Origin: Dethiobacter sp. | GTDB lineage: Bacteria; Bacillota; Dethiobacteria; DTU022; UBA8154 | Direction: 5' to 3' | Assembly: GCA_020725665.1 (NCBI GenBank) | Contig: DYEO01000028.1 | Location: forward strand, 718 to 64,717 | DNA length: 64,000 bases | Shown: positions 1,172 through 50,099 of the stretch, one piece after another | How positions within the stretch are numbered: position 1 is the stretch's first letter | How the letters are laid out: the number at the start of each line of letters is the position of its first letter | Notes under the pieces: generated by a model | The model's database searches: none | Seen by the model: only the letters and a program-made list of their open reading frames with translations | Told to the model about the DNA's origin: nothing | Position numbers and translations under genes: made by a program

Positions 1172-1415
1172 AGAGGTAAGAATTCAAATTTCTGCCAGCC
1201 ATGGGTGCCTGCCAGCCATGGGGACGGTTCCATCGTCTTCCCTTCGGACCTCCGCTTCGCTACGGTGACGCTCGAACCGTCCCCACGGCACCGCTAAGTG
1301 CAAATTTTCGCTGTAGTGCTAACTGCATCAGAAGAATTACACATTGGGTAATAATGATATAGATATTGTATTAATTGTATGCGATATCCAAAACCGGTTT
1401 AGGGGTGGGGTGGGG

Positions 1416-2003
1416 ATGAAGATTATTCTTGACGGGCTGGAGATTCCTTTTGCAGATGGCCTTGATAAAAAAATCGCCGGCAGGCTGAAACAGGAGAACC
1501 TGGTGATCCGGTCCCTGAAAGTCAATAATGTGGAGATGGTGAATGCCTCCCTGGAAGAGGTCCTGGCCGACCCGGCGGCAGGCAAGGTGGTAGTGATCAA
1601 CACTGCACCGGCAGGGGAACTGCTCCGGGATGCCATGCTGGACGCCCGGGATTATGTTCCCAAACTGCTCGGCGGGTTGCCGGAGATCCGGGAACGGCTC
1701 CTGGAGGGTAACAAGAAGGCGGTGCACGCCCTGGTGGATGCAGCCCTGGAGGGGCTGGAGTGGCTGGGCTTGACCTTCCAGGCCTTTATCAGCCAGGGTT
1801 ACTTTCCTGCAGCGGAGAAGGTATTTACCTGGGAATATAGCCGTCTCAGTACCACCTTAAAGGAATTGGAAGCGGCGCTGCGGTCGGGAAGGATGGAGGC
1901 AGCCTGTGATATTTTTGAGCAGAAGATAGGCCCTTTCCTGGAAAAACTGCTTCCCCTGGCAGAGGAGATGTTGCAGGATGAAGCCACGGGCGGCAAGGGC
2001 TGA
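1416..2003 (+). CDS. hypothetical protein (196 aa from MKIILDG)
   Basis: Long ORF with coding-like composition. The GGGGTGGGGATG context gives an SD-like run before the ATG at 1416. No family recognised by eye. Confidence 0.5.
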   Translation: MKIILDGLEIPFADGLDKKIAGRLKQENLVIRSLKVNNVEMVNASLEEVLADPAAGKVVVINTAPAGELLRDAMLDARDYVPKLLGGLPEIRERLLEGNKKAVHALVDAALEGLEWLGLTFQAFISQGYFPAAEKVFTWEYSRLSTTLKELEAALRSGRMEAACDIFEQKIGPFLEKLLPLAEEMLQDEATGGKG

Positions 2004-2011
2004 TCAAAAAC

Positions 2012-2037
2012 GGGCGGGCACGGAGACCCGCCCCTAC
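2012..2037. repeat. REP-like GC palindrome (GGGCGGG-loop-CCCGCCCCTAC)
   Basis: Perfect 7-bp GC stem plus a conserved CTAC tail. Member of a family recurring about 11 times in the window. Confidence 0.6.
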
Positions 2038-2119
2038 ATGCTGTGTATTTCTCATTCCGGCGGGGAATAAACGGGAAAGTATTTTTTCCAGCGTAAGAAT
2101 GAAAATGAGGGCATATCCC

Positions 2120-2145
2120 GGGCGGCTGTGGGCAGCCGCCCCTAC
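2120..2145. repeat. REP-like GC palindrome (GGGCGGCTG-tggg-CAGCCGCCCCTAC)
   Basis: 9-bp perfect stem. Near-identical to the copy at 8297-8322. Confidence 0.6.
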
Positions 2146-2213
2146 GGGTGCAGGGATTTGTATGAGGGCCGGCGGCAACACCGGCTTTTTTAATTTGTGA
2201 CTGTAACAAATGG

Positions 2214-2240
2214 TTAATACCGGCAGGGAATTGCCGATAT
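2214..2240 (+). promoter_or_regulatory. candidate sigma-28 (SigD/FliA) promoter upstream of flaG
   Basis: GCCGATAT at 2233-2240 matches the Bacillus sigma-D -10 consensus. TTAA sits 15 nt upstream where the TAAA -35 is expected. Confidence 0.45.
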
Positions 2241-2336
2241 GTTATTAAAAGACTGCTATTTTTTTAAAACAGAAAGCAAAAAGGAAAGAAACCCTGGACG
2301 GAGCCGGCATTTCTGAGAAAGGAGGGTGAAAAGGAG

Positions 2337-2717
2337 ATGAAAGTTGACGGTGTTGATCCCGTGCAGTTGAACAAAGTCCACGACTTTACTCAGAAAACGG
2401 TTGTCCAGGAGAGCCAAAGACAGGACCCCAAGCAAAAACAGCAGGAACGGGTACTGGGACGGGAACAGCCGGTCGGGGAATGGGATGGCAGCAGGATCGA
2501 GGAACTGGATGAGGCTCTCCGCAAGATGAACCAGACAGCGGAAACCTTTAATGTGAGCCTGCGCTTTCGTGTCCACGAGGAAACGGAGCGCATCATGGTG
2601 CAGGTCATCAACCGGGACAGCAAGGAAGTTATCCGGGAAATACCGCCGGAACGCGTCCTCAACATGGTTGCCCAGATCCAGAACATGATCGGCCTCTTTG
2701 TTGATTTCCGCCGCTGA
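2337..2717 (+). CDS. flaG: flagellar protein FlaG
   Basis: 126 aa with a C-terminal FlaG signature (LRFRVHEETERIMVQVINRDSKEVIREIPPERVLNM). Sits immediately upstream of fliD. Confidence 0.8.
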   Translation: MKVDGVDPVQLNKVHDFTQKTVVQESQRQDPKQKQQERVLGREQPVGEWDGSRIEELDEALRKMNQTAETFNVSLRFRVHEETERIMVQVINRDSKEVIREIPPERVLNMVAQIQNMIGLFVDFRR

Positions 2718-2761
2718 TCCTGTGATTTTTCACAATTCATTTAGCGGGGAGTGCAATATCA

Positions 2762-4264
2762 ATGTCCAGAATTACTTTCGGCGGGCTCGCTTCGGGGTTG
2801 GATACGAACAATCTCATCAACCAGTTGGTGGAGTTGGAACGCCAGCCTATCGTACGTAAAGAAAAGCGCATCACCGAACTGGAGCGCATCAGGGATACGT
2901 GGCGGGATATCAATATGCGCCTGCGCAACCTGCGGGATACGGTGCTGGGGTTAAAGGAGCGGGACAACTTACTTTCCATGCGGGCAGGCTCCACGGAACC
3001 CTCCCGCGTTGCGGCGACGGCAGGATACAATGCGAACCCGGCTACCTACGAGCTGCAGGTCAACCAGTTAGCCACCCACCACACTGTGGCCATGTTGACG
3101 GATATCCAGACCCGTCTTGGCAGAAACGCGAATGAAGCTATGAATTTAAACGGGACCTTCCGCCTTAAGGACCTGGCGGCGGGTGACGGCACATACAAGG
3201 AGATAACGGTGCAGAGTACCGACTCCCTGACGGCCCTGCAGCATAAAATCAACAATGCCGGCGCCGGGGTTACGGCCTCCATTATTGCCGGTCACCTGGT
3301 AATGAAGAGCAATATGACCGGGGCGGCAAACGGCATGGCGATGGCCTATGTTTCGGGGCAGGATGTACTCCAAACCCTGGGTATTTACAATACGGGCACA
3401 TCATCCTACTACAACCAGACGGTGGCGCCCCAAGATGCCCATTTCAGTATCAACGGCATCAGCGCCGTCCGTGCCGGCAATGTGGTGGATGACCTGGTGG
3501 CCGATGTGACCTTCAGGTTTATGGACGCGACGAGCGGCCCCGTTTACGTGCAGGTGGCGGCTGATACGGAACGGGCGATTACAGCTCTCGGCAGCTTTGT
3601 GGAACAGTACAATTCCGTTAACCAATTTATCCGGGAGAAACTGGAAAAACGCGATCCGGACAGCAAAGATACAAGCCGGGGTCTGCTCCAGGGTGATACT
3701 ACCCTGATGAAGATCGAGCGCTCTTTGCGCACCCTAATCAATTCGCCTGTGTCCGATTATCGCTACCAGGATGAAGAAGGGAACTGGCAGCAAAAAAAAT
3801 ATTATTCCCTTGCCACCCTGGGAGTAATGACCATGGACAAGGACGGATACCTGCAGTTCAACGAGAACAAGCTGGCAGCAGCGCTGCAGGATGACCCGGA
3901 GGGTGTTTTCTCCGTACTGCAATTCGAACTGCTGGATGAGCACGGAGTGGGGACAGGCCGTTTCAGCGGTGTGGCCGTGGAGCTGGACAATTATCTGAAA
4001 AGGCTGCTGTTAACGGAACAGGACAGCCAGGGACGGCCTCTGAGACCTATTTCCGTGCAGCAGGAGGCGGCAGTACAGCGGCGTATCGATGAGCTGCGGC
4101 GGCGTATTCAGGTGCGGGAAGAGCGGCTGCTGCGTTACGAGGAGCGGCTAGTGCGGCAATTTACATCCCTGGAGAGATATATCTCCACCATGCAGTCCCA
4201 GAGCCAGGAGATGGAAAACATGATCAGGCAATTTACGGGCTTTGGCAGCAACAATAGCAGATAG
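2762..4264 (+). CDS. fliD: flagellar filament cap protein FliD (HAP2)
   Basis: 500 aa with FliD N-terminus (ITFGGLASGLDTNNLINQLVELERQPI) and C-terminal coiled coil. Confidence 0.92.
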   Translation: MSRITFGGLASGLDTNNLINQLVELERQPIVRKEKRITELERIRDTWRDINMRLRNLRDTVLGLKERDNLLSMRAGSTEPSRVAATAGYNANPATYELQVNQLATHHTVAMLTDIQTRLGRNANEAMNLNGTFRLKDLAAGDGTYKEITVQSTDSLTALQHKINNAGAGVTASIIAGHLVMKSNMTGAANGMAMAYVSGQDVLQTLGIYNTGTSSYYNQTVAPQDAHFSINGISAVRAGNVVDDLVADVTFRFMDATSGPVYVQVAADTERAITALGSFVEQYNSVNQFIREKLEKRDPDSKDTSRGLLQGDTTLMKIERSLRTLINSPVSDYRYQDEEGNWQQKKYYSLATLGVMTMDKDGYLQFNENKLAAALQDDPEGVFSVLQFELLDEHGVGTGRFSGVAVELDNYLKRLLLTEQDSQGRPLRPISVQQEAAVQRRIDELRRRIQVREERLLRYEERLVRQFTSLERYISTMQSQSQEMENMIRQFTGFGSNNSR

Positions 4265-4351
4265 CCTTTGGTACTACAATATAAAACACGGTGTTTCTAA
4301 ACTGTATAACCGCTTATCGGAGAACGGCAGTTCGGAAGGAGTGTTTTCCAA

Positions 4352-4906
4352 TTGGGGGTTAACCCTTATGCCCAGTATCACAAAAACCAGGTGGAAACGG
4401 CCGACCAGGGAAATCTCCTGCTTATGCTTTACGAGGGAGCGCTGCGCTTTCTGGGCCGGGCACGCCGCGCCCTGCGGGAGCATAACGCAGAGGCGGCCAA
4501 TAATAACCTGGTGCGCACACAGGAGATTATCGCCGAACTGATGGCTTCCCTTAACTTGGAGGCCGGAGATGTGGCGGTCTCCCTTTTCCGCCTCTACGAG
4601 TATATGCATTACCTGCTTGTGCAGGCCAATATCAGGAAGGATGAGGAAATGCTGGACCAGGTTGAGGGCATGCTGCTGGAACTGAAAGAGGCATGGAGCA
4701 GCGCCCTGGGGATGGGCGTTACTGTTCCCCCGGCCGGGCAGGATGGGGAAGACCCTGCAGTGTCGAGCCGCCAAAACCCGGAAGGGGAATGGATGGAGAG
4801 CCGGCAGACTGAAGAAAAGGTCGGCGCCCTTGCCGGTTACCAGCCGGGATTGCGTGAAGAGGAAGCTTTAAAACAGGGATACAGGCGGGTGAATATGAGT
4901 GGTTGA
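4352..4906 (+). CDS. fliS: flagellin-specific chaperone FliS (with C-terminal extension)
   Basis: TTG start. FliS core: YAQYHKNQVETADQGNLLLMLYEGALRFL...EIIAELMASLN. It carries ~60 extra C-terminal residues. Confidence 0.88.
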   Translation: MGVNPYAQYHKNQVETADQGNLLLMLYEGALRFLGRARRALREHNAEAANNNLVRTQEIIAELMASLNLEAGDVAVSLFRLYEYMHYLLVQANIRKDEEMLDQVEGMLLELKEAWSSALGMGVTVPPAGQDGEDPAVSSRQNPEGEWMESRQTEEKVGALAGYQPGLREEEALKQGYRRVNMSG

Positions 4907-5267
4907 GGAACTCCTGCATGAGCTCGAATTGCTCCTGACACGGGAGAGAGAAATATTGCATAAATTCTCGCTGCCGGATCCCGGAGAGGAAGGGGACAGC
5001 ACCTTGCAGCAGCTCTCGCAAAGCCTGGAGCAGTGCGGGGTGCTGCTGGCGCGGCTTGGCGAAACAGGACCAGGCTCCCTGGATCAAACGGCCCTACGTC
5101 ACCTGCAGGAGTTAAAGTGCCGGCGTGAAGATAATCGCAATCTCCTGTCTGAGATATTGCACTCCTCAGGCAAAAAAATTGCAGATCTCCAGGTGGAGAA
5201 AAGAGCCCTTTGCTCATACTACCCTGCAGCTTCGGCAGGGGCCCGCTTTTTGGACTGGGAGGGTTAA
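4899..5267 (+). CDS. hypothetical FliT-like flagellar chaperone (by position)
   Basis: 122-aa helical ORF with GTG start overlapping the fliS stop. It sits in the position fliT holds in B. subtilis; no sequence signature confirmed. Confidence 0.4.
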   Translation: MVEELLHELELLLTREREILHKFSLPDPGEEGDSTLQQLSQSLEQCGVLLARLGETGPGSLDQTALRHLQELKCRREDNRNLLSEILHSSGKKIADLQVEKRALCSYYPAASAGARFLDWEG

Positions 5268-5278
5268 AACTATGGTGG

Positions 5279-5302
5279 TCTGACTACTGAATTCTGACTA
5301 CG
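5279..5302. repeat. short tandem heptamer repeat TGACTAC (x2, interrupted)
   Basis: tcTGACTACtgaattcTGACTACg in the intergenic gap after the fliS-fliT unit. The same heptamer recurs at 16825-16842 and 55911-55920. Confidence 0.6.
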
Positions 5303-5499
5303 TAAATAAGTTTCAGGGATGAATAAAACCCAGGCCGGATGCTTGAAAAAACCCGGCTTATTTTTTTAATTTATTCTAAAATGGGCAGGAATTGGTAGAT
5401 TTTTGCCGAAAGATTTTAGATTAATATTGGTGGCCATGCTTGGAATACGAAAAAAGATGAAATTTAGGATGAGTAAGTATAAATAAAGGAGGATGAGGC

Positions 5500-5892
5500 A
5501 TGCTCTGGAACGATCAGTTGATGCAGGGCCTGACCCGGGGCCTCGACGCGGCGGCTCTGCGCCAGAAAGTAACGGCCAACAACATTGCCAACTTGAATAC
5601 TCCGGGATTTAAGCGGTCGTACGTCCTTTTCAATGCGGAACTGGATAAGGCCCGGAGCAAACTGCCCCTCGCGCGCACAAATCCCTGCCACTACCCCGGA
5701 CGTCCCGGGGAGGCGGATCCCCGTGTACAGACGGAACGCCATACGTCGCGGCGCACTGACGGGAACAATGTGGATCTGGACCAGGAGATGCTAGACCTGG
5801 TAACCAACCAGTTGCACTATAACGCCCTGATCCAGAGGACCAGTGGACGCCTGGCCGCATGGCGTTATGTGATTACGGAAGGGAGAGGTTAA
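5500..5892 (+). CDS. flgB: flagellar basal-body rod protein FlgB
   Basis: Rod N-terminal motif NNIANLNTPGFKR. A strong SD AAAGGAGGA precedes the ATG. Confidence 0.92.
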   Translation: MLWNDQLMQGLTRGLDAAALRQKVTANNIANLNTPGFKRSYVLFNAELDKARSKLPLARTNPCHYPGRPGEADPRVQTERHTSRRTDGNNVDLDQEMLDLVTNQLHYNALIQRTSGRLAAWRYVITEGRG

Positions 5893-18517: not shown

Positions 18518-19033
18518 ATGGCTCCGGCAGAAGAAGTTATCAAGGTGGAAAAAAAGCAGCGCAAGAGCAAAAAAGGACTAATCCTCGTTGTTGTCGCCGT
18601 AATACTGATCCTCTTCCTGGGGATTGCCTATTTTGCCCTGCGCACAGGTTTGCTCGGTGATTTGATGCTAAGCTTCGAAGACAGAAAAAAAACCACGTCT
18701 TCAAGGCGCACGGAGCTGGAGAAGGCGCCCGAGTTCATGTATGAAGTGCCGGAGATTGTTGTGAACCTGGAGGAAGGTACAGCCAAGGGCCGGTTTTTAA
18801 GTATCAAGTTTTTTATCGGTTACAACAATGCCAAGCTGCAGCAGACGCTGGATAAACGTATGCCGGAAATCAGGGATGCGGTGCTTACAGTACTCTGGCA
18901 GAGAAACAGTGATGATATCAAGACTGCCGCCGGTAAGCAACGGCTGCGGGAGGATGTACACAATACTATCGCAGACCTTCTTTATGAAGATGAAATCGTG
19001 GGGATTTATTTCTGGCACGTGATGATCCAATAG
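18518..19033 (+). CDS. fliL: flagellar basal body-associated protein FliL
   Basis: Single N-terminal TM followed by a FliL domain (VPEIVVNLEEGTAKGRFLSIKFFIGY). Confidence 0.88.
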   Translation: MAPAEEVIKVEKKQRKSKKGLILVVVAVILILFLGIAYFALRTGLLGDLMLSFEDRKKTTSSRRTELEKAPEFMYEVPEIVVNLEEGTAKGRFLSIKFFIGYNNAKLQQTLDKRMPEIRDAVLTVLWQRNSDDIKTAAGKQRLREDVHNTIADLLYEDEIVGIYFWHVMIQ

Positions 19034-29034: not shown

Positions 29035-29502
29035 GTGGAGACGGCCATGCTCTTGCTGGGAATAGTGATCGGTTGTCTGGCCGGCCTGCTGTTAACCGGG
29101 TGGTTGTTCCGCCATGGAGGGGCGGTGGAACCTTTTTTTTTACGCCTGCTGCGGCAGGAAAACAAGGCTACGGCCCGCATTGATACACGCCTGATGCTCC
29201 ATGAACTGCTGCGCAAGGTGGAAGACCTTACGGTTAAAACCCAGCGGATGGACAGGGAACTGCAGGAACTTAAGGAGAACTCCCTGCGACTGGTGCAGCA
29301 GGCAAACGTTGATGTATCGGAGAAGACGCGTTCCTTTGCTCATGTTTACCGGCTTTTCCAGGAGGGGTTTACAGCGGAGGAGATTGCCTGCCGGCTCCAG
29401 TTGGGGCGGGGTGAAGTGGAGTTGCTCCTTTCCCTGGAAAGAAAGCCTCCCTGGGTAGTTTCGGCCGCCGGCAACTTAAATACTGTAAAAAAGCTTAAAT
29501 AA
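29035..29502 (+). CDS. hypothetical membrane-anchored protein, SwrB-like by position
   Basis: 155 aa with an N-terminal TM helix and a coiled-coil C-terminus. Lies immediately after fliA, as swrB lies after sigD in B. subtilis. Confidence 0.4.
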   Translation: METAMLLLGIVIGCLAGLLLTGWLFRHGGAVEPFFLRLLRQENKATARIDTRLMLHELLRKVEDLTVKTQRMDRELQELKENSLRLVQQANVDVSEKTRSFAHVYRLFQEGFTAEEIACRLQLGRGEVELLLSLERKPPWVVSAAGNLNTVKKLK

Positions 29503-32845: not shown

Positions 32846-32917
32846 CTTTTTTTGCAGGATTTTCAATTATAATGGCGAATATTGAAAAAAAAACCAACTT
32901 TACCCTAAGGTGTCTGT

Positions 32918-34720
32918 ATGACTGAGTTGATTTTAAAACCTCTGGAAAAAGAGATTATCCGGAAAATTGGCAACGCCTCTGTCAACGCCGTTCCCCAGGC
33001 GTTGGCTGCCTTTGTCAGAGGGGCTGTGCGTGTGCAAGCGCCGGACATACAGCTAAAAAGTATGGACAGCTTAACCGGCTTGGGCGAAAAGGGGCTGCTC
33101 GCCCGCATAGTGTTTCGTGAAGGATTAACGGGGCAGCAATACTTCTTCTTTCCCGGGGAAAGTGCAGCCCTGCTTGCCGCTTTACTGCTCGGGAAAGAGC
33201 CCCCTGCGGAACCTCCGGAAGAACCTGCAGAGATGGAAAAAAGTGCCTTGAGCGAGGCTGTGGGGATGATTATGGGGGTATATACCACATCCCTCTCCGG
33301 TTTTCTCAACAGCCAGATCGGGATCGATGCACCGCAAATCGAGTACATTTCCCCCGCTGAGAAGGATTTTAGTACTGACGGCTTGAGCGCCGCGGAAAAT
33401 TGGGTTGTACTGCGGTTTATCCTGGAAGTCGAGCCGGCTTATCAGGTAATTTTCTTGCAGTATATTCCCTATGCTTTTATGCGGGAGATGATTGCTCCCC
33501 TGCTACCGCCTCAGGCTGACGCTGCAAAAGAGGCAGCAGGAACGGATACGCCGTCCAGGGAGCAACAGGCTCTTTTGTCTGATCTGGGGGATTTGCCGGA
33601 GAAGGAAAAAGAGGACCTTAACATGCTGCAGAAGGATGCCCTGGCGGAGGTCGGCAACATTTCCCTGGGGGCATCGGCTACAGCCCTTGCCAAACTGTTG
33701 AACAGGAGAGTTCAGATCACCACGCCTGCTGTAACCCTGACCACAATGGCTGAGGTCCGTGCAAACTATCCCACGCCCTGCCTTGTGGTTACGGTAAATT
33801 ATAGCAAGGGACTTACAGGGCATAACATTCTTATTCTCAAAAGGGATGATGCCCTGGCGATTGTGGGAGTAATGATGGGCTTGGAACCGCCGGAACGCCT
33901 GCTTGAGTTGGGCGAAATGGAGATATCAGGTATCAGCGAGGCCATGAACCAGATGATGGGCTCTGCGGCCACGGCCATGTCCGATCTCTTTCAGCGAACC
34001 ATTGATATATCTCCACCCCACGTGGAGGTAAAGGATCTGCATGTGGAAAAGCTGGATATCGCTGAAATGGATGATGAGAACCTGGTGGTGCAGGTTGCCT
34101 TTCACATGGAAGTGGAAGCGCTCCTGGACAGCAAACTTTTACAACTTATTCCCCTGCCCTTTGCCCGGGGAATTTCTGATTACCTTCTCTCCAGCGTGGG
34201 TGCGGCAGAGCCTGAGGGGGAGGATATTGGGGAGGATGTTCTTGAAGATTTTAATTTTGGAGATATAAGTGTTGAAGATTTTTTGGAACGATCCGCTCCT
34301 GCTACAACTGAGGTTGTTGGCTTGGGGAAAGTTTTTGCGGGAGAAGAACAGGCCGAAGAAGCAGCAGCAGGTCTGTTCTCAGGCCTGGAAATGTTTACCC
34401 GTGCCCTTGCAGGTGACACAGCAGATAATCAGGATGCGAATCCCAATGCTTCCACCAAGGTTTGGCAGGATTACGAGTACTCCCGTATTGACATGATCCG
34501 GGATATCCCTGTAAATATCCATGTCCTACTGGGTAAGACGCGCTTGCCCCTGAAAAAAATTTTTTCTATACTCCCTGGTGAGGCCATTACCCTGGATCGT
34601 TACCTGGGGGAACCGGTCGATGTATTTGCCAATGACCGCCTCGTGGCCAAAGGGGAGGTGGTTATGGTTAACGGGCAGTTTGGCTTTAAAATTATTGATA
34701 TGATCCGTCCTCAACATTAA
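32918..34720 (+). CDS. fliY: flagellar motor switch phosphatase FliY (CheC-like domains plus FliN C-domain)
   Basis: 600 aa. Two CheC-like segments (EVGNISLGASATALAKLL...; ISEAMNQMMGSAATAMSDL...) and a C-terminal SpoA domain (IPVNIHVLLGKTRLPLKKIFSILPGEAITL...FGFKIIDMI). Confidence 0.85.
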   Translation: MTELILKPLEKEIIRKIGNASVNAVPQALAAFVRGAVRVQAPDIQLKSMDSLTGLGEKGLLARIVFREGLTGQQYFFFPGESAALLAALLLGKEPPAEPPEEPAEMEKSALSEAVGMIMGVYTTSLSGFLNSQIGIDAPQIEYISPAEKDFSTDGLSAAENWVVLRFILEVEPAYQVIFLQYIPYAFMREMIAPLLPPQADAAKEAAGTDTPSREQQALLSDLGDLPEKEKEDLNMLQKDALAEVGNISLGASATALAKLLNRRVQITTPAVTLTTMAEVRANYPTPCLVVTVNYSKGLTGHNILILKRDDALAIVGVMMGLEPPERLLELGEMEISGISEAMNQMMGSAATAMSDLFQRTIDISPPHVEVKDLHVEKLDIAEMDDENLVVQVAFHMEVEALLDSKLLQLIPLPFARGISDYLLSSVGAAEPEGEDIGEDVLEDFNFGDISVEDFLERSAPATTEVVGLGKVFAGEEQAEEAAAGLFSGLEMFTRALAGDTADNQDANPNASTKVWQDYEYSRIDMIRDIPVNIHVLLGKTRLPLKKIFSILPGEAITLDRYLGEPVDVFANDRLVAKGEVVMVNGQFGFKIIDMIRPQH

Positions 34721-37900: not shown

Positions 37901-38515
37901 GTGAAACTGTTGGAGGAACGAAAAATTGACAGTAACAGGCTGGATGTACTGAAAGAACTGGCTAATATCGGCGTAGGCAATGCCATAACTTCCCTTTCCC
38001 AGTTGCTCTCCGGAGAAAAGGTAGATATGGATGTGCCTGCTGCCTTTCTGCTCCCCCTGCAGGATGTTCCCGCTTCGCTGGAGGGAGAGGAGACCGCCGT
38101 GGTGGGCGTCTATATCGAAGGAAAAGGGGATGTTAATCTTACCATTCTCTTCGTGCTCTCCCTGGAAAGTGCAGCCAACCTGATTTCCGCTTTGCTCCCT
38201 GGTTCTGCAGGCGATTTTGACGAGATGGGTATATCAGTCCTGACGGAGGTTGGCAATATCCTTACCGCTTCCTATCTTAACGCTATCTCCATTATGACCA
38301 ACCTGCAGTTGCTTCCGACCCCTCCCGAAGTGGCTGTGGATATGGCCGGGGCGATCATCTCCACAGTATTGGCTGAAGCCCGTGTCATAGATGATGAGAT
38401 AGTCCTTTTAAAAACTTCATTGAATACCAGGCAAACCCGGATCGAAGGAAGTATTCTTATATTACCCGATGCAGGGGCCCTGGAAAAAATATTCAGAATC
38501 CTGGGGCTGACATGA
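37901..38515 (+). CDS. cheC: CheY-P phosphatase CheC
   Basis: Two CheC repeats (ELANIGVGNAITSLSQLL; LTEVGNILTASYLNAISIMT) with the conserved E/N pattern. Confidence 0.9.
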   Translation: MKLLEERKIDSNRLDVLKELANIGVGNAITSLSQLLSGEKVDMDVPAAFLLPLQDVPASLEGEETAVVGVYIEGKGDVNLTILFVLSLESAANLISALLPGSAGDFDEMGISVLTEVGNILTASYLNAISIMTNLQLLPTPPEVAVDMAGAIISTVLAEARVIDDEIVLLKTSLNTRQTRIEGSILILPDAGALEKIFRILGLT

Positions 38516-39021
38516 TATCTATGATTGTGGATAATACGGAAATCGTTAAAGTTAAGATTGCAGATATGGCCGTGCTTAAAGATAACGGTTTAATCATTAC
38601 AGTGGGTTTGGGTTCTTGTGTGGGAATCTGTCTTTACGATGAGATCAGCAGGGTGGGGGGATTGGCCCATATACTCCTCGCAGAAAGCCAGCAATTTAAA
38701 AGCAGGGATGGCGCCGTGAATAAAGCTAAATTTGCGGATACGGCAATACCCCTTTTGCTGGAGAAGATGGAAAAATTTGGAGGCAAGCGGAGCCGTCTCC
38801 GGTCCAAGATTGCTGGCGGCAGCCAGCTTTTTGTATTTAAAAAAACCAACATCAGCGTGGGAGAGAAAAACGTAGAAACGGTGCGCCGCACCCTGAAGAA
38901 GCTTAATATCCCCGTAGTGGGCGAGGACGTGGGGGGAAGCCACGGCCGGACGATGCGTCTTTATATTGACAGTGGCAGGGTTACCATCTCTACTGTGGGG
39001 AAAGGTGAAATAGAAATATGA
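38512..39021 (+). CDS. cheD: chemoreceptor glutamine deamidase CheD
   Basis: GLGSCVGICLYD (Cys nucleophile) and HILL motifs; ~165 aa. Start overlaps the cheC stop. Confidence 0.92.
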   Translation: MISMIVDNTEIVKVKIADMAVLKDNGLIITVGLGSCVGICLYDEISRVGGLAHILLAESQQFKSRDGAVNKAKFADTAIPLLLEKMEKFGGKRSRLRSKIAGGSQLFVFKKTNISVGEKNVETVRRTLKKLNIPVVGEDVGGSHGRTMRLYIDSGRVTISTVGKGEIEI

Positions 39022-39040: not shown

Positions 39041-40135
39041 ATGATCAACAAAGAGCAAAAAAAACCTCTTAAAGTAATGGTTGTTGACGATTCGGCGTTT
39101 ATGCGCCGTTTCATCAGTGATATTATCAACAGTGATGCAGATCTGGAACTGGTGGGGACGGCGCGGGACGGTTTGGATGCCCTGCGTAAGCGACAGCAGT
39201 ATGATCCTGATGTGATTACCCTGGACGTGGAGATGCCCAATCTCAATGGCCTGGAGACATTAAAAAGACTTATGCAGGAAAAACCCCTCCCCGTTGTCAT
39301 GGTGAGCAGTCTCACCCGGGAGGGAAACGAGATCACCATTGAAGCCCTTTCCTGCGGGGCGGTGGATTTTGTTACCAAACCGGCAATATTTAAAGGAGAG
39401 AGCACCGCCGCGATCAGGGAGGCACTGACGCTAAAAATAAAGGCCGCTGCGGCGGCACGCCTTTTTCAGTTGCCCGCGGCCCCGCTTGAACCGGTCCAGC
39501 CGGCTGCTTTTACCCCTTTGCCCCTGCAAAAAAGTCCAACCGGACGATTCCCGCGCAATGTGGTAGCCATTGGTGCTTCAACAGGAGGCCCCCGTGCCCT
39601 CGATGTAATTTTTCGCAGTTTTCCCCCCGGTTTGCCTGCTGCTTTTCTGGTTACCCAGCATATGCCTGCCGGTTTTACCGAATCTCTCTCCCGGCGCCTC
39701 AATCTTATCTCCGAGCTGCAGGTCAGGGAGGCCCGTGGAGGGGAAGGCATTAGTGAAGGGGAGGCCTATTTGGCTCCCGGCGGCTATCACCTGGTAGTAA
39801 AGAAGAACGGGGTTACGGAACTCAGCAGTGCCCCTCCCATACAACACGTGCGCCCCTCTGCTGATGTAATGATGGATTCCCTGGCGGAAACCTTCGGCAA
39901 CCTTGTTATTGGTGTGATCCTCACCGGTATGGGACGGGATGGTGCGGACGGCATGTCCCGCATAAAGGAAAAAGGAGGGCGTACCATTTGCCAGGATCCG
40001 TCCACGGCCGTGATCTCCAGTATGCCCCAGGCCGTGATTAATGATGGTATGGCCGATCTTGTTGTTCCCCTGGAGCAGGTGGGTTCGACAATTGTACGCT
40101 TGCTTCGCGGATACACACTGAAGGAGAGAATTTAG
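39041..40135 (+). CDS. cheB: chemotaxis methylesterase/response regulator CheB
   Basis: N-terminal REC (VMVVDDSAFMRR...LDVEMP) plus C-terminal methylesterase (GASTGGP, TQHMPAGFT, catalytic Ser/His/Asp context). Confidence 0.95.
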   Translation: MINKEQKKPLKVMVVDDSAFMRRFISDIINSDADLELVGTARDGLDALRKRQQYDPDVITLDVEMPNLNGLETLKRLMQEKPLPVVMVSSLTREGNEITIEALSCGAVDFVTKPAIFKGESTAAIREALTLKIKAAAAARLFQLPAAPLEPVQPAAFTPLPLQKSPTGRFPRNVVAIGASTGGPRALDVIFRSFPPGLPAAFLVTQHMPAGFTESLSRRLNLISELQVREARGGEGISEGEAYLAPGGYHLVVKKNGVTELSSAPPIQHVRPSADVMMDSLAETFGNLVIGVILTGMGRDGADGMSRIKEKGGRTICQDPSTAVISSMPQAVINDGMADLVVPLEQVGSTIVRLLRGYTLKERI

Positions 40136-40136
40136 C

Positions 40137-40923
40137 TTGAAAAACGAATGGGACTATAGTGAATTTAAAGTGGCTTTTTTTCGACGCACCGGGCTGGATT
40201 TGAACCTTTATAAAGACAAGCAGATGGAAAGGCGTATCCGCCAGCTGATGCAGCGGGAAAAAAAACCCGGTTTTAAGGAGTTCTATGATTACCTTGCTTC
40301 GTCAACGACAGCCATGACTTTTTTTTTTCAATTACCTTACGATCAACACTTCAGAATTTTTTCGTGATGAGAAGATTTACAGCCTGCTGGAGGCGGAGAT
40401 TTTTCCGGAAATTATCCATAAAATTACAGGGAAGCTGATTGCCTGGAGTGCCGGTTGCTCCATTGGCGCAGAGCCGTATACGGTGGCGATTATCCTGGAT
40501 CGATTAAAAGTCCTTTCCCGGTCGGAGATCCACGCTACCGACATGGATGATAAAGCCCTGCTGGCGGCGCAGCAAGGCTGCTACAACCAGAAACAGTTGG
40601 GCAAGACACCATCCCATGTGGTGGAAAAATATTTCACCCGGGAAAAGGATATCTACTGTGTGAAGCCCGAAATCCGCAAAGCAGTCCATTACCGGCGGCA
40701 TAACCTGCTTACGGATGACCCTATCGCCAAATGCCACATCATTTTCTGCCGTAATGTTTTTATTTACTTTAAACCGGAAACGCAGCATTTTCTCCTGGAG
40801 CGTTTTTCCCGGGTCCTCAACCCCGGGGGATTCATGGTTATTGGCTCGGCCGAGTACATCGGCAACCCGTCACAATACTCCTTCAGCAAACGCTACAACA
40901 CCATTTTCCAAAAAAACAGTTGA
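40137..40923 (+). pseudogene. cheR: chemotaxis methyltransferase CheR, interrupted by +1 frameshift in a T10 homopolymer
   Basis: N-part in frame 0 (…ASSTTAMTFFF then stop at 40367). The rest continues in frame +1 from 40330: NYLTINTSEFFRDEKIY...LIAWSAGCSIGAEPYTVAIIL...VFIYFKPE. Nine Ts instead of ten would restore TAMTFFFNYLTINTSEFFRD. Confidence 0.85.
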
Positions 40924-41665
40924 CAATTGACGTATGCCCAGCCAAAGGCTGCTTTGCCGACGACCTAATCGTACTCATCAACTGGCATCCGTCAAACAAT
41001 TGGCTCGTGAAAGCAGTAACCCGCAGAATCAAGGAAGAACTGGAGAAGCTTCAGGTAGAATTGAACCAGGAAAAGAGCAAAGTGGCAGACCTCACCAAAG
41101 GGGAAAGCTTCATCTTCCTGGGCTTTGAGTTCCGTAGAATAAGGAGCAGAAGTGGAAAATGGAGACCCTACTACACACCAAAACAGGAGAAGCGCAAGAA
41201 GCTAATCACGGAACTTCAGGAGATATTCAGCAAGTATACTTCGCAGCCCGTGGGGAAAATAATTGAGGAAATAAATCCGAAACTACGGGGATATTGCAAC
41301 TACTATCGCATCGGACAATCGGCGCGTTGTTTCAGCTACATCAGGCAATGGGTGATGAAGAAAGTATGCAGGCACCTGCAAAGAGCAAGAGGACGCTCGG
41401 GGTTTGGCTGGAAAAGGTGGAGCTCGGCGTATATCTATGAAGTGCTCGGACTGTATAAAGACTACAAGCTGAAAAGATATATCCCGGCAGCCGGACCGGC
41501 AGAGAGGACACATAAACCTTGTTATGAAGCCAATAGGTAAGCCCGGTGCGGGAAAACCGCACGCCGGGCTTGAAGAGGCGGAAATAGAGTAAGGCAGGAT
41601 ATTGAGGCACTGTCAACCGAAAGGGACAGCAAACAGACTAGGTCTGCCTAAGCCACTACGCCAGT
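40920..41665 (+). mobile_element. 5'-truncated group II intron remnant: RT from motif 5 onward, maturase (X) domain, and domain V
   Basis: ORF 40920-41540 carries FADDLIVLI (the RT YADD box) and a maturase region (PKLRGYCNYYRIGQSARCFSYIRQWVMKKVCRHL). 41539-41571 folds as canonical domain V: AGC triad, 7-bp plus 5-bp helices, 2-nt CG bulge on the 3' strand, purine-rich loop. No domains I-III or RT motifs 0-4 are present upstream, because cheR occupies that position. Confidence 0.75.
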
Positions 41666-41703
41666 TTTCGACCCTACAGGTTAACAGTGGACAGTTTACA
41701 ATT

Positions 41704-41787
41704 GTAGGGGCGGGTCTCTGCGCCCGCCCGTGTAGGGGCGGGTCTCTGCGCCCGCCCGTGTAGGGGCGGCTGCTCACAGCCGCCCGC
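41704..41787. repeat. three tandem REP-like GC palindromes (two identical 27-nt units plus a variant)
   Basis: tGTAGGGGCGGGtctctgcgCCCGCCCg occurs twice, followed by tGTAGGGGCGGCTGctcaCAGCCGCCCgcc. Confidence 0.7.
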
Positions 41788-41808
41788 CAACATCCAACCT
41801 CTAACATC
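41788..41808. repeat. short tandem heptamer repeat CAACATC/CAACCTC/TAACATC
   Basis: Three heptamers directly after the REP triplet and before the tautomerase RBS. Confidence 0.55.
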
Positions 41809-41831
41809 AGCCTTTTGGAGGAGGTGATAAG

Positions 41832-42017
41832 ATGCCCACCATATTTTTTTACGGCCCGGAACTGGATCTGGAGAAGAGACGGGAACTGGTACAATCATTC
41901 ACAAAGAAAGCGAGCGAACTTACCGGCATACCGGAGCAGGCCTTTGTCGTTTATCTGCGCCCCAGCGACCAGGAACATGTGGGGGTAGGCGGCATGCTTC
42001 TTTCGGACCGGAAGTAG
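41832..42017 (+). CDS. 4-oxalocrotonate tautomerase family enzyme (Pro-1 tautomerase)
   Basis: 61 aa starting MPTIFFYG (catalytic N-terminal Pro after Met removal), the size and pattern of the 4-OT family. GGAGGAGG SD. Confidence 0.75.
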   Translation: MPTIFFYGPELDLEKRRELVQSFTKKASELTGIPEQAFVVYLRPSDQEHVGVGGMLLSDRK

Positions 42018-42041
42018 CGACCTGCTATCCAAAAGTCTAAA

Positions 42042-42100
42042 GGAAAAACCAGGGTGGCACCTGCCGTAGTGTCAAGTTGTTTCCCACCCTGGTTTTTTTA
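42042..42100. terminator. bidirectional rho-independent terminator
   Basis: AAAAACCAGGGTGG...CCACCCTGGTTTTTTT: 11-bp GC stem with A-run and T-run flanks, between convergent tautomerase and iorB genes. Confidence 0.75.
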
Positions 42101-42141
42101 CTGGCTCCGCCGGTACCTGTTCTTAGCATTCTAAAAAATAT

Positions 42142-42741
42142 CTAGAAGTTTGCCTCCTGCAGGCAGGCCTCCCGCCCCAGGTCAAAGGCCGTGAGGTTGA
42201 CGTCAACCAATTTGGGCGGTACCAGGCCGGCCATGACCTCCCGCAGCAGCTCCGGCTCCAGGGGCGAGCCGCCCTTGGCGGAGAAAGCACCCAGCAGGAC
42301 GGCGTTGGTGGCACGGAAACTGCCGGCCTTGACTGCCAGCGCCTGCATGTCAAAAAGAACGGTGTTAGCCTTGAGGTCTTTAAGGTAACCCTTGATCTCC
42401 GCCTCGTTGTACTTATAGGCCCCGGAAAGCATCTCGTGAGGCGGGACGACGGTGGTATTGATGATAGCCACGCCCCCGGGCTTCAACTTCTTCACCCAGC
42501 GCACCACTTCGAGCATCTCAAAGCCGAGGAGCACTTCGGCTCCACTGTCGGGGACCAGGGGGCTCTTGATCCCGTCGCCGAAACGCAGGTGGCTGACCAC
42601 GGAACCGCCCCGTTGGGCCATGCCCAGAGATTCCGTACTTCTTACCGAGTATCCCTTTTGAATGGCGGCGAGGGAGATTGTCCTGGTTGCGAGGATTGTT
42701 CCCTGTCCCCCCACACCGGATAAAACGATGCTGAACTTCAT
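42142..42741 (-). CDS. iorB: indolepyruvate:ferredoxin oxidoreductase beta subunit IorB
   Basis: ~199 aa, MKFSIVLSGVGGQGTILA, the pyruvate/2-oxoacid:ferredoxin oxidoreductase gamma-like fold. Directly downstream of iorA on the same strand. Confidence 0.85.
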   Translation of the reverse strand: MKFSIVLSGVGGQGTILATRTISLAAIQKGYSVRSTESLGMAQRGGSVVSHLRFGDGIKSPLVPDSGAEVLLGFEMLEVVRWVKKLKPGGVAIINTTVVPPHEMLSGAYKYNEAEIKGYLKDLKANTVLFDMQALAVKAGSFRATNAVLLGAFSAKGGSPLEPELLREVMAGLVPPKLVDVNLTAFDLGREACLQEANF

Positions 42742-44555
42742 TGGGAGACCTCCTTTATTGCCTCAGATGGGCATATTTCACAGCATACCCCGCACCCGGC
42801 ACAGGTGTCGGCAATCTCAACCCCGTCCATGTTAATAATCGCGGGACAACCCAGTTCCTCAATACAGATCTCACATTCTGTGCAGAGATCCTTGTCAATG
42901 GTGAAACGGCGGGTTATCTTGATCCGGTTAACACAGGGGGCGCGGGCGATGACTACGGAGGGTCCTTTGAAGTCCAGGGCCCTTTTAGCTGCTGCCATCA
43001 TCTCCGGCAGGTTATTGGGATCCACAATCTCCAGGTGGGTGACACCCAGGCTTTCCACGATTTTCTCGATTTCCGCTTTGGGAGCATCATCCCCCGTGGC
43101 CGCTTTACCCATCCCCGGGTGGGGCTGGTGTCCGGTCATGGCCGTGGTCTCGTTGTCCAGGATAACCACGGTCACATTACCCTGGTTGTAAACAATGTTT
43201 AAAAGACCGGTCATGCCCGCGTGGAGGAAGGTGCTGTCGCCGATAATGGCCACATGGGGACGCTCCTTCTCCACCAGGGATAGACCGTAGGCTACGGTGA
43301 GGCCTCCGCCCATACAGAGGCAGGTATCGGTGGCATGGAGAGGTGCGGCGTAGCCCAGGGTATAGCAGCCGATGTCGCCGCAGAAAACGGCATCTCCCTT
43401 TGCGCCTGCCTTGGCAAAGGCATAGAAAGCTGCCCGGTGACCGCAACCGGCGCAGAGAATGGGGGGGCGCCCCGGCAGGGTGGGAGCAGCTTTTTCCGTA
43501 ATTTTTTCCGCGGTTTTAAGTTCCTGCCCCAGGAAGGCCTGGATAAAGGAAGCGGCACGGTCCACGTCAAATTCACCGAAACGGGATACTTCGCCCGTGC
43601 GCTTGCCGTATACCTCCACGCCCAGCTTTTCGTTCCAGACCAGCCGCACAACCTGGTCCTCGATTACCGGTTCCTGCTCCTCTATAACGAGGACTTTATC
43701 CACTTTTTTCAAAAATTCACGGGTAGGTTCATCGGGAAGAGGATAGGGGGTGCCGATTTTCAGGAGAGGAGCTTTATAGCCCAGTTGATCCAGGGCTTCC
43801 CTGGCATAATTATAGGATACGCCGGAAGCGATGACGCCCCAGTTTCCCTCGCCCGCCTCGATCCAGTTAAAGGCACTCTGGGAGAATATTTTGGCCGCTT
43901 GCACCTGCTGATCTTCCAGGCGGAAATGGTTACGGGCGGATAATGACGGGAGGATGCACCACTTGGGATCTTTTTGAAACTTGTAATCTTTAACAACCGG
44001 GGTCTTGATTTCTCCCAGCACAACATCGCCGTGGGCATGGGAGGAGCGGGTGGTGGGCCGCACAATTACAGGCAATTTCAAAGCCTCGGAAACTTCAAAG
44101 GCATAAATGGTCATATCCTTGGCTTCCTGTGCCGAAGAAGGCTCCAAAATGGGAAGCTTGGCAAAACTGGCAAATAAGCGCGTATCCTGCTCCGTCTGCG
44201 AGGAGTGGGGCCCGGGATCGTCGGCAACGACCAACACCAAGCCACCTTCAATGCCAATATAAGCAAGGCTCATTACCGCGTCGGAAGCGACGTTCAGGCC
44301 CATCTGCTTCATCGAAGCCATAGCCCTTGCCCCGGCGTAGGAAGCTCCTGCCGCTGTCTCCACCGCTACCTTTTCATTGACGCTCCACTCGGCGTGAAAG
44401 CCGTATTTTTTTGCCCATTGGGCCAGTGTACCCATTATTTCTGAAGAGGGTGTTCCGGGGTAAGAGGCCGCCACGGCAATTCCTGCTTCTACAGCTCCCC
44501 TGGCTATGGCTTCATTCCCCATCATCAAAACCCTTGTGCCTGCCTTTTCTTCCAT
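42738..44555 (-). CDS. iorA: indolepyruvate:ferredoxin oxidoreductase alpha subunit IorA
   Basis: 605 aa with a TPP-binding domain (GDSTFLHAGMTGLLN) and C-terminal 2x[4Fe-4S] ferredoxin motifs (CTECEICIEELGCP; CAGCGVCCEICP). Confidence 0.88.
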   Translation of the reverse strand: MEEKAGTRVLMMGNEAIARGAVEAGIAVAASYPGTPSSEIMGTLAQWAKKYGFHAEWSVNEKVAVETAAGASYAGARAMASMKQMGLNVASDAVMSLAYIGIEGGLVLVVADDPGPHSSQTEQDTRLFASFAKLPILEPSSAQEAKDMTIYAFEVSEALKLPVIVRPTTRSSHAHGDVVLGEIKTPVVKDYKFQKDPKWCILPSLSARNHFRLEDQQVQAAKIFSQSAFNWIEAGEGNWGVIASGVSYNYAREALDQLGYKAPLLKIGTPYPLPDEPTREFLKKVDKVLVIEEQEPVIEDQVVRLVWNEKLGVEVYGKRTGEVSRFGEFDVDRAASFIQAFLGQELKTAEKITEKAAPTLPGRPPILCAGCGHRAAFYAFAKAGAKGDAVFCGDIGCYTLGYAAPLHATDTCLCMGGGLTVAYGLSLVEKERPHVAIIGDSTFLHAGMTGLLNIVYNQGNVTVVILDNETTAMTGHQPHPGMGKAATGDDAPKAEIEKIVESLGVTHLEIVDPNNLPEMMAAAKRALDFKGPSVVIARAPCVNRIKITRRFTIDKDLCTECEICIEELGCPAIINMDGVEIADTCAGCGVCCEICPSEAIKEVSQ

Positions 44556-48266: not shown

Positions 48267-49430
48267 ATGGAAAAGCCGGCTATCTATTTTGACAATGCGG
48301 CCACCTCCTGGCCGAAGCCTGAGGCGGTTTATCATGCTGCGGAGCATTACCTGCGTTGCGGCGGGGCCAACCCCGGCCGCTCCGCCCATGCCCGTTCCCT
48401 TGCCTCAGAGCGACTCCTCTACGAATGCCGGGAAAGAGCCGCCGCATTCCTTGGAGCGGAAAAAGCGGAGCAGATCATCTTTACCCTCAATGCCACCGAT
48501 GCGCTGAATATGGCGATCAAGGGCATGCTGGAAGCAGGCGATCACGTCGTTTACAGCTCCTTTGAACACAATTCAGTGCTGCGGCCCCTCTACTCCCTGC
48601 GGGAGAGCGGTTTGATTAGCACCACGATGATCTCTCCTACAGGGAAGGATGCTGTTGATGCCGCATCATTTGACCGCGCCATCCGCCCGGAAACGAAACT
48701 GCTCATCTGCACCCATGCTTCCAACATCACCGGCCGTATTATGCCCGTGCAGGCCATCGGCAAAGTTGCCGCGGCTAGGGGTGTCTTTTTCCTGCTCGAT
48801 ACCGCCCAGACGGCGGGGGCGCTCCCTTTAAACGTACAGGAGATCGGCGCGCACCTGGCCGTTTTTACCGGACACAAAAGCCTGCTCGGTCCCCCCGGTG
48901 TAGGGCTGCTCTACCTGCGCGAGGGAGTAAAGATTAAACCCTGGCGTGAAGGGGGAACGGGCAGCCGTTCCGATGAGGAGCAGCATCCCAAATTTTTGCC
49001 CGATTACCTGGAAGCGGGGACAATGAACACCCCCGGTATTGCCGGCCTGAACGAGGGATTGAAATTTATCACCGCAACCGGTGTGGAAACAATCCGCGCA
49101 CACGAACTAAAACTTTGTCGTATTATGCTGCAGGGACTGGCCCAAATCGACGGTGTGAAAGTTTTCCGGTCCGCTGCTCCGGAGCACTATGTGGCAGTCA
49201 TATCATTCGTGCTCGAAGGATTGGACAGTGGGGAATTGGGATACATCCTGGAAGAAGGCTACGGCATCCTCTGCCGCACCGGCCTGCACTGTGCCCCCCA
49301 GGCCCACCGGGCCATCAGTACCTTTCCCGCCGGGACGGTGCGCTTCAGTTTTGGTTACTTCAACACGGAAGAAGAAGTGAATACTGCCCTCAAAGCCCTC
49401 AGCGAAGTGTCACGGCGACTGTTCCGCTGA
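48267..49430 (+). CDS. class V aminotransferase / cysteine desulfurase-family PLP enzyme
   Basis: IYFDNAATSWPKP N-terminus, PLP-lysine context (TGHKSLLGPPGVG) and a class V fold. Confidence 0.8.
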   Translation: MEKPAIYFDNAATSWPKPEAVYHAAEHYLRCGGANPGRSAHARSLASERLLYECRERAAAFLGAEKAEQIIFTLNATDALNMAIKGMLEAGDHVVYSSFEHNSVLRPLYSLRESGLISTTMISPTGKDAVDAASFDRAIRPETKLLICTHASNITGRIMPVQAIGKVAAARGVFFLLDTAQTAGALPLNVQEIGAHLAVFTGHKSLLGPPGVGLLYLREGVKIKPWREGGTGSRSDEEQHPKFLPDYLEAGTMNTPGIAGLNEGLKFITATGVETIRAHELKLCRIMLQGLAQIDGVKVFRSAAPEHYVAVISFVLEGLDSGELGYILEEGYGILCRTGLHCAPQAHRAISTFPAGTVRFSFGYFNTEEEVNTALKALSEVSRRLFR

Positions 49431-49582: not shown

Positions 49583-49593
49583 CCCCCCCCCCC
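49583..49593. repeat. C11 homopolymeric tract in promoter region
   Basis: 11 consecutive C immediately upstream of TTGCCA and an AT-rich region, ~110 nt before the ORF at 49701. Confidence 0.7.
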
Positions 49594-49700: not shown

Positions 49701-50099
49701 ATGGCTGCACAGGATTCACTGGACCGGATCATTGATGTATTGCCTGAAAATTTGAAGTGCCTCGTCATGAAAGAAGTGCATGACAAAGAGAATTTTCTGG
49801 CGGTGGTGAAAGGGATTAAGGGTGAAGCTTTGGCCGTTACAGACGAAGGGGTGCATATGGTCAAGGAATCAGACCGGTGCAGTTTCTTCCCCTTCAGCGC
49901 CATTGCCTCCATAAAAATCTACCGTGAACTGCGTCGCGGTAAGTTTGAACTGATCCTGCGGGGAGGAAAAAGACCCGAACAGGGATTAATGATGGGGTAC
50001 GAGGCTGATCCCGCTGAGCATGTGGTCAACTTTCCCTTTGCCAAGATGGCCATGTTCAAGAAAGTTGGCGAAATGATCTGGGAGCGAATAACGGCTTAA
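49701..50099 (+). CDS. hypothetical protein (132 aa)
   Basis: GGAGGAGGG SD then ATG. No recognisable motif. Confidence 0.5.
   Translation: MAAQDSLDRIIDVLPENLKCLVMKEVHDKENFLAVVKGIKGEALAVTDEGVHMVKESDRCSFFPFSAIASIKIYRELRRGKFELILRGGKRPEQGLMMGYEADPAEHVVNFPFAKMAMFKKVGEMIWERITA

Follow-up and report, generated by a model that had tools for sequence, protein, structure and literature searches.

Homopolymer Tracts in Motility Genes and Slippage-Rescued Genes

Slippage at homopolymers is, as a mechanism, textbook knowledge. The closest described systems to the locus reported here are three motility genes, swrA from B. subtilis, flhA from C. coli, and fliP from H. pylori, which feature an A8/A9 tract, a T7/T8 tract, and a C-tract, respectively, and in which a single-base change in the run truncates the product (PMC2831843). 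ON and OFF alleles and their rates have been observed in these systems. Switching was measured at ~1e-4 to 1e-5 for the A9/A8 tract of swrA, and at 3e-4 / 7e-6 for the T8/T7 tract of flhA (PMC2831843). A second group consists of frameshifts that are rescued by slippage and includes the A11 run in tssM1 from Citrobacter rodentium, the T9 run in mxiE from Shigella, the poly(A) genes of Buchnera, and the disrupted ORFs described by Baranov et al. in 2005. Disrupted ORFs can be restored by RNA polymerase slippage, and selection against A/T runs in coding regions is evident from 9 nt in many bacterial genomes (PMC1088944). In a +1 frameshift reporter, the RNA polymerase of E. coli, which prefers poly(T), drops a U at T8 and so achieves ~10% rescue (PMC6260861), and the A11 run of C. 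rodentium tssM1 gives 20–25% frameshifted product (PMC4256274); these slippage figures are for E. coli and Citrobacter and not for the organism studied here.

The locus described here is a cheR gene in a 64-kb stretch of DNA, all of which was analysed and is referred to as the window. The gene features a T10 tract, and it resembles swrA, flhA, and fliP in that a single-base change in the run truncates the product and in that the tract length falls in the hypermutable range. It differs from them in that the OFF length alone has been observed, in a single lineage, and in that the tract lies mid-gene at a domain boundary, whereas the tracts of the three motility genes lie near the 5′ end. The target is also different, as it is the adaptation enzyme CheR, and literature searches that named cheR turned up neither a homopolymer frameshift nor phase variation in this gene. 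With the slippage-rescued genes the locus shares an A or T run of 9 nt or more located exactly at the junction of two frames (PMC4256274; PMC1088944), however, rescue at this locus is a prediction, the frameshift is not conserved in orthologues, and nothing points to two needed products. The locus is best classed as a homopolymer frameshift allele that is recent and lineage-specific, in a cheR that is canonical in all other respects.

The Two Reading Frames of cheR

The T10 tract is located exactly at positions 40319–40328 on the + strand, as an earlier sequence-only reading had claimed, and it is the point at which the frame changes. The gene starts with a TTG codon at 40137, which lies 1 nt past the cheB stop; cheR from the closest relative (L001) also starts with TTG. 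The sequence upstream features a Shine-Dalgarno-like GAAGGAGAG at 40120..40128 on the + strand, ~10 nt 5′ of the TTG. Translation bears out what the sequence-only reading said of both frames. The frame-0 ORF at 40137–40367 encodes 76 amino acids, of which the first 64 are CheR-like and end in ...ASSTTAMTFFF and the last 12 are out of frame. The 5′ segment (40137..40328, + strand, 64 codons ending in TAMTFFF) encodes the all-alpha CheR_N domain (Pfam PF03705, residues 6–55) and is 61–77% identical to its closest homologues. The out-of-frame tail, QLPYDQHFRIFS, together with its TGA stop at 40365–40367 occupies 40329..40367 on the + strand and is part of the deposited 76-aa protein MEW5919712.1. 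The +1 frame has a TGA at 40315–40317 and is then open from 40318 to the TGA at 40921–40923, reading FFFNYLTINTSEFFRD.... The 3′ segment of cheR in this frame (40330..40923, + strand, 197 codons and the TGA) features the linker motif NYLTINTSEFFRD and a complete SAM-binding methyltransferase domain.

The CheR domains therefore sit in frames 0 and +1, are joined only via T10, and are not contained in any single uninterrupted frame. Simulation of the number of T residues determined that T9 is in frame, that T10 and T11 are out of frame, and that an added T gives no sensible product. The claim that T9 would give an intact CheR was correct insofar as the T9 sequence is a single ORF with both Pfam domains, however, the product is 261 aa and not 262 aa in length, as 262 is the number of codons including the stop. 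No other T10 or A10 is present in the window. At least one T10 or A10 is present in 41 of 100 dinucleotide-preserving shuffles of the window, so such a run is not rare in 64 kb, but chance does not account for the sole T10/A10 falling in the 13-nt frame-change interval of a conserved gene.

Independent expression of the C-terminal domain was also considered and was rejected. There is no in-frame ATG, GTG, or TTG before the GTG at 40483, and this first possible start lies beyond the AGCSIGAEPY SAM-binding motif, so a free-standing methyltransferase domain is not expected.

The Repaired CheR Protein and Its Neighbourhood

Deletion of one T gives a translation that matches Pfam CheR_N (PF03705) at residues 6–55 with an E-value of 6e-12 and CheR (PF01739) at residues 70–249 with an E-value of 4e-49. 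Residues 7–256 of this repaired product align with the structure of B. subtilis CheR (5FTW) with an E-value of 9.5e-50, and the alignment is gap-free at the junction. Protein alignment with 19 homologues is likewise gap-free around the junction, where the window reads AMTFFFNYLTIN and the relatives read ALEFFLNYLTIN, AMEYFFNYLTIN, or ALERFMNYLTIN. All of the invariant and nearly invariant positions of the CheR alignment are kept in the repaired product.

The flagellar and chemotaxis cluster in the window is complete, runs from flgB to cheR on the + strand, and has cheR as its last gene. Pfam matches and the gene table place cheA, cheW, cheY, cheC, cheD, and cheB in the neighbourhood. The genes cheC (37901–38515), cheD (38512–39021), and cheB (39041–40135), all on the + strand, are intact beside cheR, as had been stated before. 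The two-domain architecture of the repaired product is that of canonical CheR (B. subtilis 5FTW; Salmonella 1AF7), and the cheC-cheD-cheB-cheR neighbourhood is shared with it as well. Unlike canonical CheR, the gene in the window is coded in two frames, and it is annotated by NCBI as proteins of 76 aa and 193 aa. The gene is otherwise a canonical cheR, and its repaired product has a predicted receptor methyltransferase activity.

The Junction in Related Genomes

A codon-level DNA comparison revealed that the conserved (A)M/L codon and the N codon are separated by exactly 12 nt in four relatives, and this interval reads GAGTTTTTTTTA in L001, GAGTATTTTTTT in L010, GAGTTTTTTCTC in L006, and GAGCGCTTTATG in L012. 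The interval in the window is 13 nt, ACTTTTTTTTTTC (AC-T10-C). Since the relatives have 12 nt and the window has 13, the extra base falls in this 13-nt interval, in which 10 positions are T, and because the frame change is confined to so short an interval the gain of a single T in a T9 tract is the simplest route to the present sequence. Together with the gap-free protein alignment, this result upholds the core of the sequence-only reading, namely that cheR is intact save for one extra T. The tracts in relatives are T8 (L001, the closest), T7 (L010), T6 (L006), and also T3, and they are always in frame, so the frameshift is lineage-specific. The site codes for Phe-Phe-(Phe/Leu) and is T-rich throughout the clade, and the 18 full-length or near-full-length homologues that were aligned are all single-frame.

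Among the 120 homologues listed in the full-length search there are 4 truncated products. One of these, P0053, was considered as a recurrent cheR split in another lineage and was rejected, as its contig (L005) has a coverage of 0.64 and many broken genes, and its cheR is shifted twice. In this distant relative the locus at 1238–5552 of the contig (ERZ2647830 NODE_858) has cheD, cheB, cheR, and an MCP gene that are all split, and L005 is an indel-ridden assembly and not biology.

The codon before the tract (window 40314–40329) is ACT, which codes for Thr; at this position 18 homologues carry Glu, Asp, Gln, or Lys. The comparison of ATG-AC-T10 in the window with ATG-GAG-T8 in relatives fits an earlier compensated pair of changes, −1 (a G lost) and +1 (a T gained), and, as a speculation from the codons, this earlier event might have been ATG GAC T8 to ATG AC T9. 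If such a pair did occur, the tract has slipped before.

The lesion in cheR is the only one in the gene, and the 197 codons downstream of it are open. The identity to P0001 is alike in both halves of the protein, being 76.6% and 74.0%. Tajima-type relative-rate counts for the C-terminal part gave 5–14 unique changes in the window versus 14–25 in P0001/P0002, depending on the outgroup, so that the window CheR branch is not accelerated and is, if anything, the shorter branch. The single lesion, the retained conserved residues, and the lack of acceleration indicate that the event is recent. Judged from these sequence comparisons, the frameshift would have to be very recent, or not real, or not inactivating.

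A Proposed Recent T9 to T10 Frameshift

The explanation that is put forward here is a genuine, recent, and non-programmed T9 to T10 frameshift allele, to which we give an even chance. The extra T most likely lies in the DNA rather than in the reads. The ancestral T9 tract would have coded for Thr-Phe-Phe-Phe (ACT TTT TTT TTC) where the N-terminal helical domain of CheR meets the methyltransferase domain, and one T would have been gained by slipped-strand mispairing in replication. Under standard decoding the deposited DNA gives only the 76-aa N-terminal fragment. As the methyltransferase domain lacks a start site for separate translation, this is a knock-down or null allele of cheR.

A run of 10 T residues is expected to mutate in both directions at high frequency, and T9 (ON) revertants are probably present in the population, which would make the allele probably reversible. 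RNA polymerase slippage that drops one U should yield some full-length 261-aa CheR, and a +1 slip of tRNA-Phe on UUU may contribute a minor share of the rescue. Whether a U is lost or tRNA-Phe slips by +1 at any point on UUU UUU UUU C, the product would be the same 261-aa protein, with TFFFNY at the junction and a predicted junction peptide of ...AMTFFFNYLTINTSEFFR. A minority of full-length CheR from the T10 gene is thus plausible, judging from the tracts analysed in other systems. The sequence-only reading had proposed a loss of adaptation methylation, and this loss is probably incomplete even if T10 is real, as RNA polymerase is apt to slip on T10 itself.

Should the extra T be real, the window comes from an uncultured, environmental Bacillota population in which cheR is off or strongly down while the other flagellar and chemotaxis machinery is intact. 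This predicts altered adaptation (biased run/tumble) and likely heterogeneity from cell to cell. There are points that count against a genuine T9 to T10 change. No T9 allele was found in the databases searched, and the unusual Thr codon before the tract argues against a simple T9 ancestor, so that the ancestral state may be more complex. The earlier reading had named a sequencing error, a true mutation, and a contingency switch as the alternatives, and this is the right set, with the weights among them now shifted.

Sequence Records and a Possible Miscount

The main rival to a genuine allele is a sequencing or assembly artefact, in which the true tract of the organism would be T9, cheR would be intact with a 261-aa product, and the consensus count would be off by one. 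We regard this as possible but somewhat doubtful. Long homopolymers are a classic site of indel errors, and no other A/T run in the window is as long as the T10 tract, which makes it the likeliest place for a miscount. A miscount would readily explain why the removal of one T gives a perfect CheR, with every conserved residue in place and no gap against the 19 homologues or 5FTW, and why there is no sign of relaxed selection. The source is a metagenome-assembled genome, or MAG (GCA_040753375.1), and the support for T10 comes from consensus sequence rather than from reads.

Over 20.6 kb, the window matches JBFMEO010000010.1, a contig of the 'Bacillota bacterium' MAG GCA_040753375.1, at 100% identity. 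In the NCBI annotation the locus is split into MEW5919712.1, a hypothetical protein of 76 aa, and MEW5919711.1, a 'CheR family methyltransferase' of 193 aa, which are to be read as one gene. MEW5919711.1 corresponds to window 40342–40923, its PGAP start is an ATC codon, and the locus carries no frameshift flag. The identical 76-aa product, including its out-of-frame tail, is present on two NCBI contigs (145,537 and 67,160 bp), and 6 of the 10 other window proteins that were looked up are also found on both contigs with identical sequence. The agreement of two deposited contigs on the frameshifted product counts against an artefact, but the two contigs may share the same reads, which also limits their weight in favour of a genuine allele.

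The sequence-only reading had suggested looking for T9 in sister genomes, and searches of the protein collection, the GTDB genomes, and the JGI metagenomes for a T9 allele were all negative. The repaired full-length protein was compared with a collection of 5.8 billion clusters and had no match above 75% identity except for this genome's own fragments, and a 106-aa query spanning the junction returned only the 76-aa fragment from the protein collection. The GTDB genomes contained only a 75% relative and no sister locus, and the JGI metagenomes, which were searched with both an exact DNA pattern and the protein, contained no sister locus. A Logan contig of 1,149 bp (L014, run SRR29635773) is 99.65% identical to window 41768–42916 with 4 mismatches, and a closely related strain has therefore been sequenced. 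This contig ends at a 28-nt tandem repeat (41768), 0.85 kb short of cheR.

The remainder of the 64 kb counts against an artefact, as it features eight other runs of 7–9 bases that keep the frame of genes supported by Pfam or by the source annotation, and none of them is linked to a frameshift. These runs include a T9 at 29133–29141 inside the DUF6115/DUF2802 gene of the flagellar cluster, an A8 at 18685 in fliL, an A8 at 39057 in cheB, a C8 at 31057, and five further 7-base runs. There is also an intergenic A9 at 32885–32893, just 5′ of a fliY-like gene (32918–34720), and the T9 in the DUF6115/DUF2802 gene together with this A9 indicates that the genome tolerates 9-nt A/T runs within the operon. 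Indels of ±1 were simulated at all homopolymers of at least 5 bases in the window, and apart from cheR these merged ORFs only at ordinary gene junctions. The ORFs at 19.0–21.3 kb were considered as a split gene and proved to be four separate genes, FliN-like, FliO, FliP, and FliQ, by Pfam. When the group II intron remnant downstream of cheR is set aside, no other split gene was found in the 64 kb. The fragmented L005 contig illustrates a poor assembly, and the window does not resemble it. A general assembly-error problem is unlikely, given that there are no other split genes and that the same product is found on two contigs. In addition, the contig sizes and clean gene models resemble a short-read consensus, in which a majority-rule error at T10 would be uncommon. 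If the extra T is nevertheless a miscount, the locus matters only as an annotation correction.

Phase Variation and Programmed Recoding as Improbable Alternatives

A less probable alternative is that the tract is maintained, either as a contingency locus that turns cheR ON or OFF by tract length or as a programmed recoding site that sets the fraction of full-length protein by transcriptional slippage; we hold this improbable as a whole. The tract has a length at which replication and transcription slippage are both efficient (PMC1088944; PMC6260861; PMC4256274), and swrA, flhA, and fliP are established targets of homopolymer switching among motility genes (PMC2831843). The hypermutable tract lies within an ORF, a slippery run sits at the frame junction (T10 in the 13-nt interval), and cheR is otherwise pristine. 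The position of cheR as the last gene of the operon would also allow switching without a polar cost.

Several results speak against maintenance. Neither the frameshift nor the long tract is conserved, as the tracts of the closest relatives are shorter (T8, T7, T6, and T3) and in frame. The two-frame layout is not found in orthologues either; among the 120 homologues listed only 4 are truncated, and the one examined, the split cheR of L005, belongs to the error-ridden contig described above. No tract-length polymorphism was seen in the protein databases searched, where ON and OFF lengths among siblings or strains would be expected of a phase-variable locus and only the T10-frame product is recorded, and one genome cannot show maintenance. 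The search for a stimulatory element was also negative. The tract is not preceded by a terminator-like hairpin, and the terminator-like sites detected in 39800–42200 all lie away from it. The local fold of a 131-nt region is no better than that of shuffles (z = −0.38), no GGAGG-like Shine-Dalgarno stimulator is present upstream of the tract, and the next 0-frame codon, CAA, is an ordinary A-site codon. Based on the in-frame T3–T8 tracts of the relatives and on the lack of a stimulator, a conserved or programmed switch is unlikely.

The narrower proposal that selection keeps T10 as a slippage-dependent throttle on CheR or as an ON/OFF switch has, in our judgement, only a slim chance of being right. 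If it were true, most cells or transcripts would be without the methyltransferase and a minority would have the full-length enzyme, and chemotactic adaptation would vary across the population at constant CheB, CheD, and CheC. We know of no adaptation enzyme in a chemotaxis pathway that is controlled by a homopolymer, and CheR would be the first.

That cheR is an old, decaying pseudogene in a lineage giving up chemotactic adaptation is very improbable. The intron remnant that abuts the gene speaks for it, as it points to some local genome decay, but cheR itself has one lesion with 197 codons open, its conserved residues are retained, the relative-rate tests reveal no acceleration, and the neighbouring che and fla genes examined are all intact.

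The Region Downstream of cheR and a C11 Tract

The region immediately 3′ of cheR is occupied by a 5′-truncated group II intron remnant (40920..41677, + strand), which overlaps the cheR stop by 4 nt. The remnant consists of a 206-aa ORF for the RT C-terminal/maturase part (40920–41540, + strand) that begins in the RT palm motif (..CFADDLIV..) and matches Pfam GIIM with an E-value of 1e-13 and RVT_1 in part, and of a domain V/VI-like RNA (41537–41677, + strand) that scores 34.6 bits against Rfam Intron_gpII, which falls short of the gathering score of 40. In relatives L006 and L012, a radical-SAM gene takes the place of the intron remnant 3′ of cheR. A GC-rich tandem repeat of 28 nt with 2.4–2.9 copies of the unit TGTAGGGGCGGGTCTCTGCGCCCGCCCG is located at 41703–41788, just 3′ of the remnant. 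Each unit is an internal palindrome (GGGCGGG...CCCGCCC), and the repeat may be REP-like or form an array of terminators.

The window's longest homopolymer is a C11 at 49583–49593. It lies in a 270-nt intergenic gap between an aminotransferase gene (48267–49430) and a 132-aa ORF (49701–50099) that has no Pfam match. The C11 region has no Rfam family match and the tract is upstream of an AT-rich stretch containing TGTTATAAT. The C11 tract may be a second slippage-prone site that acts on expression.
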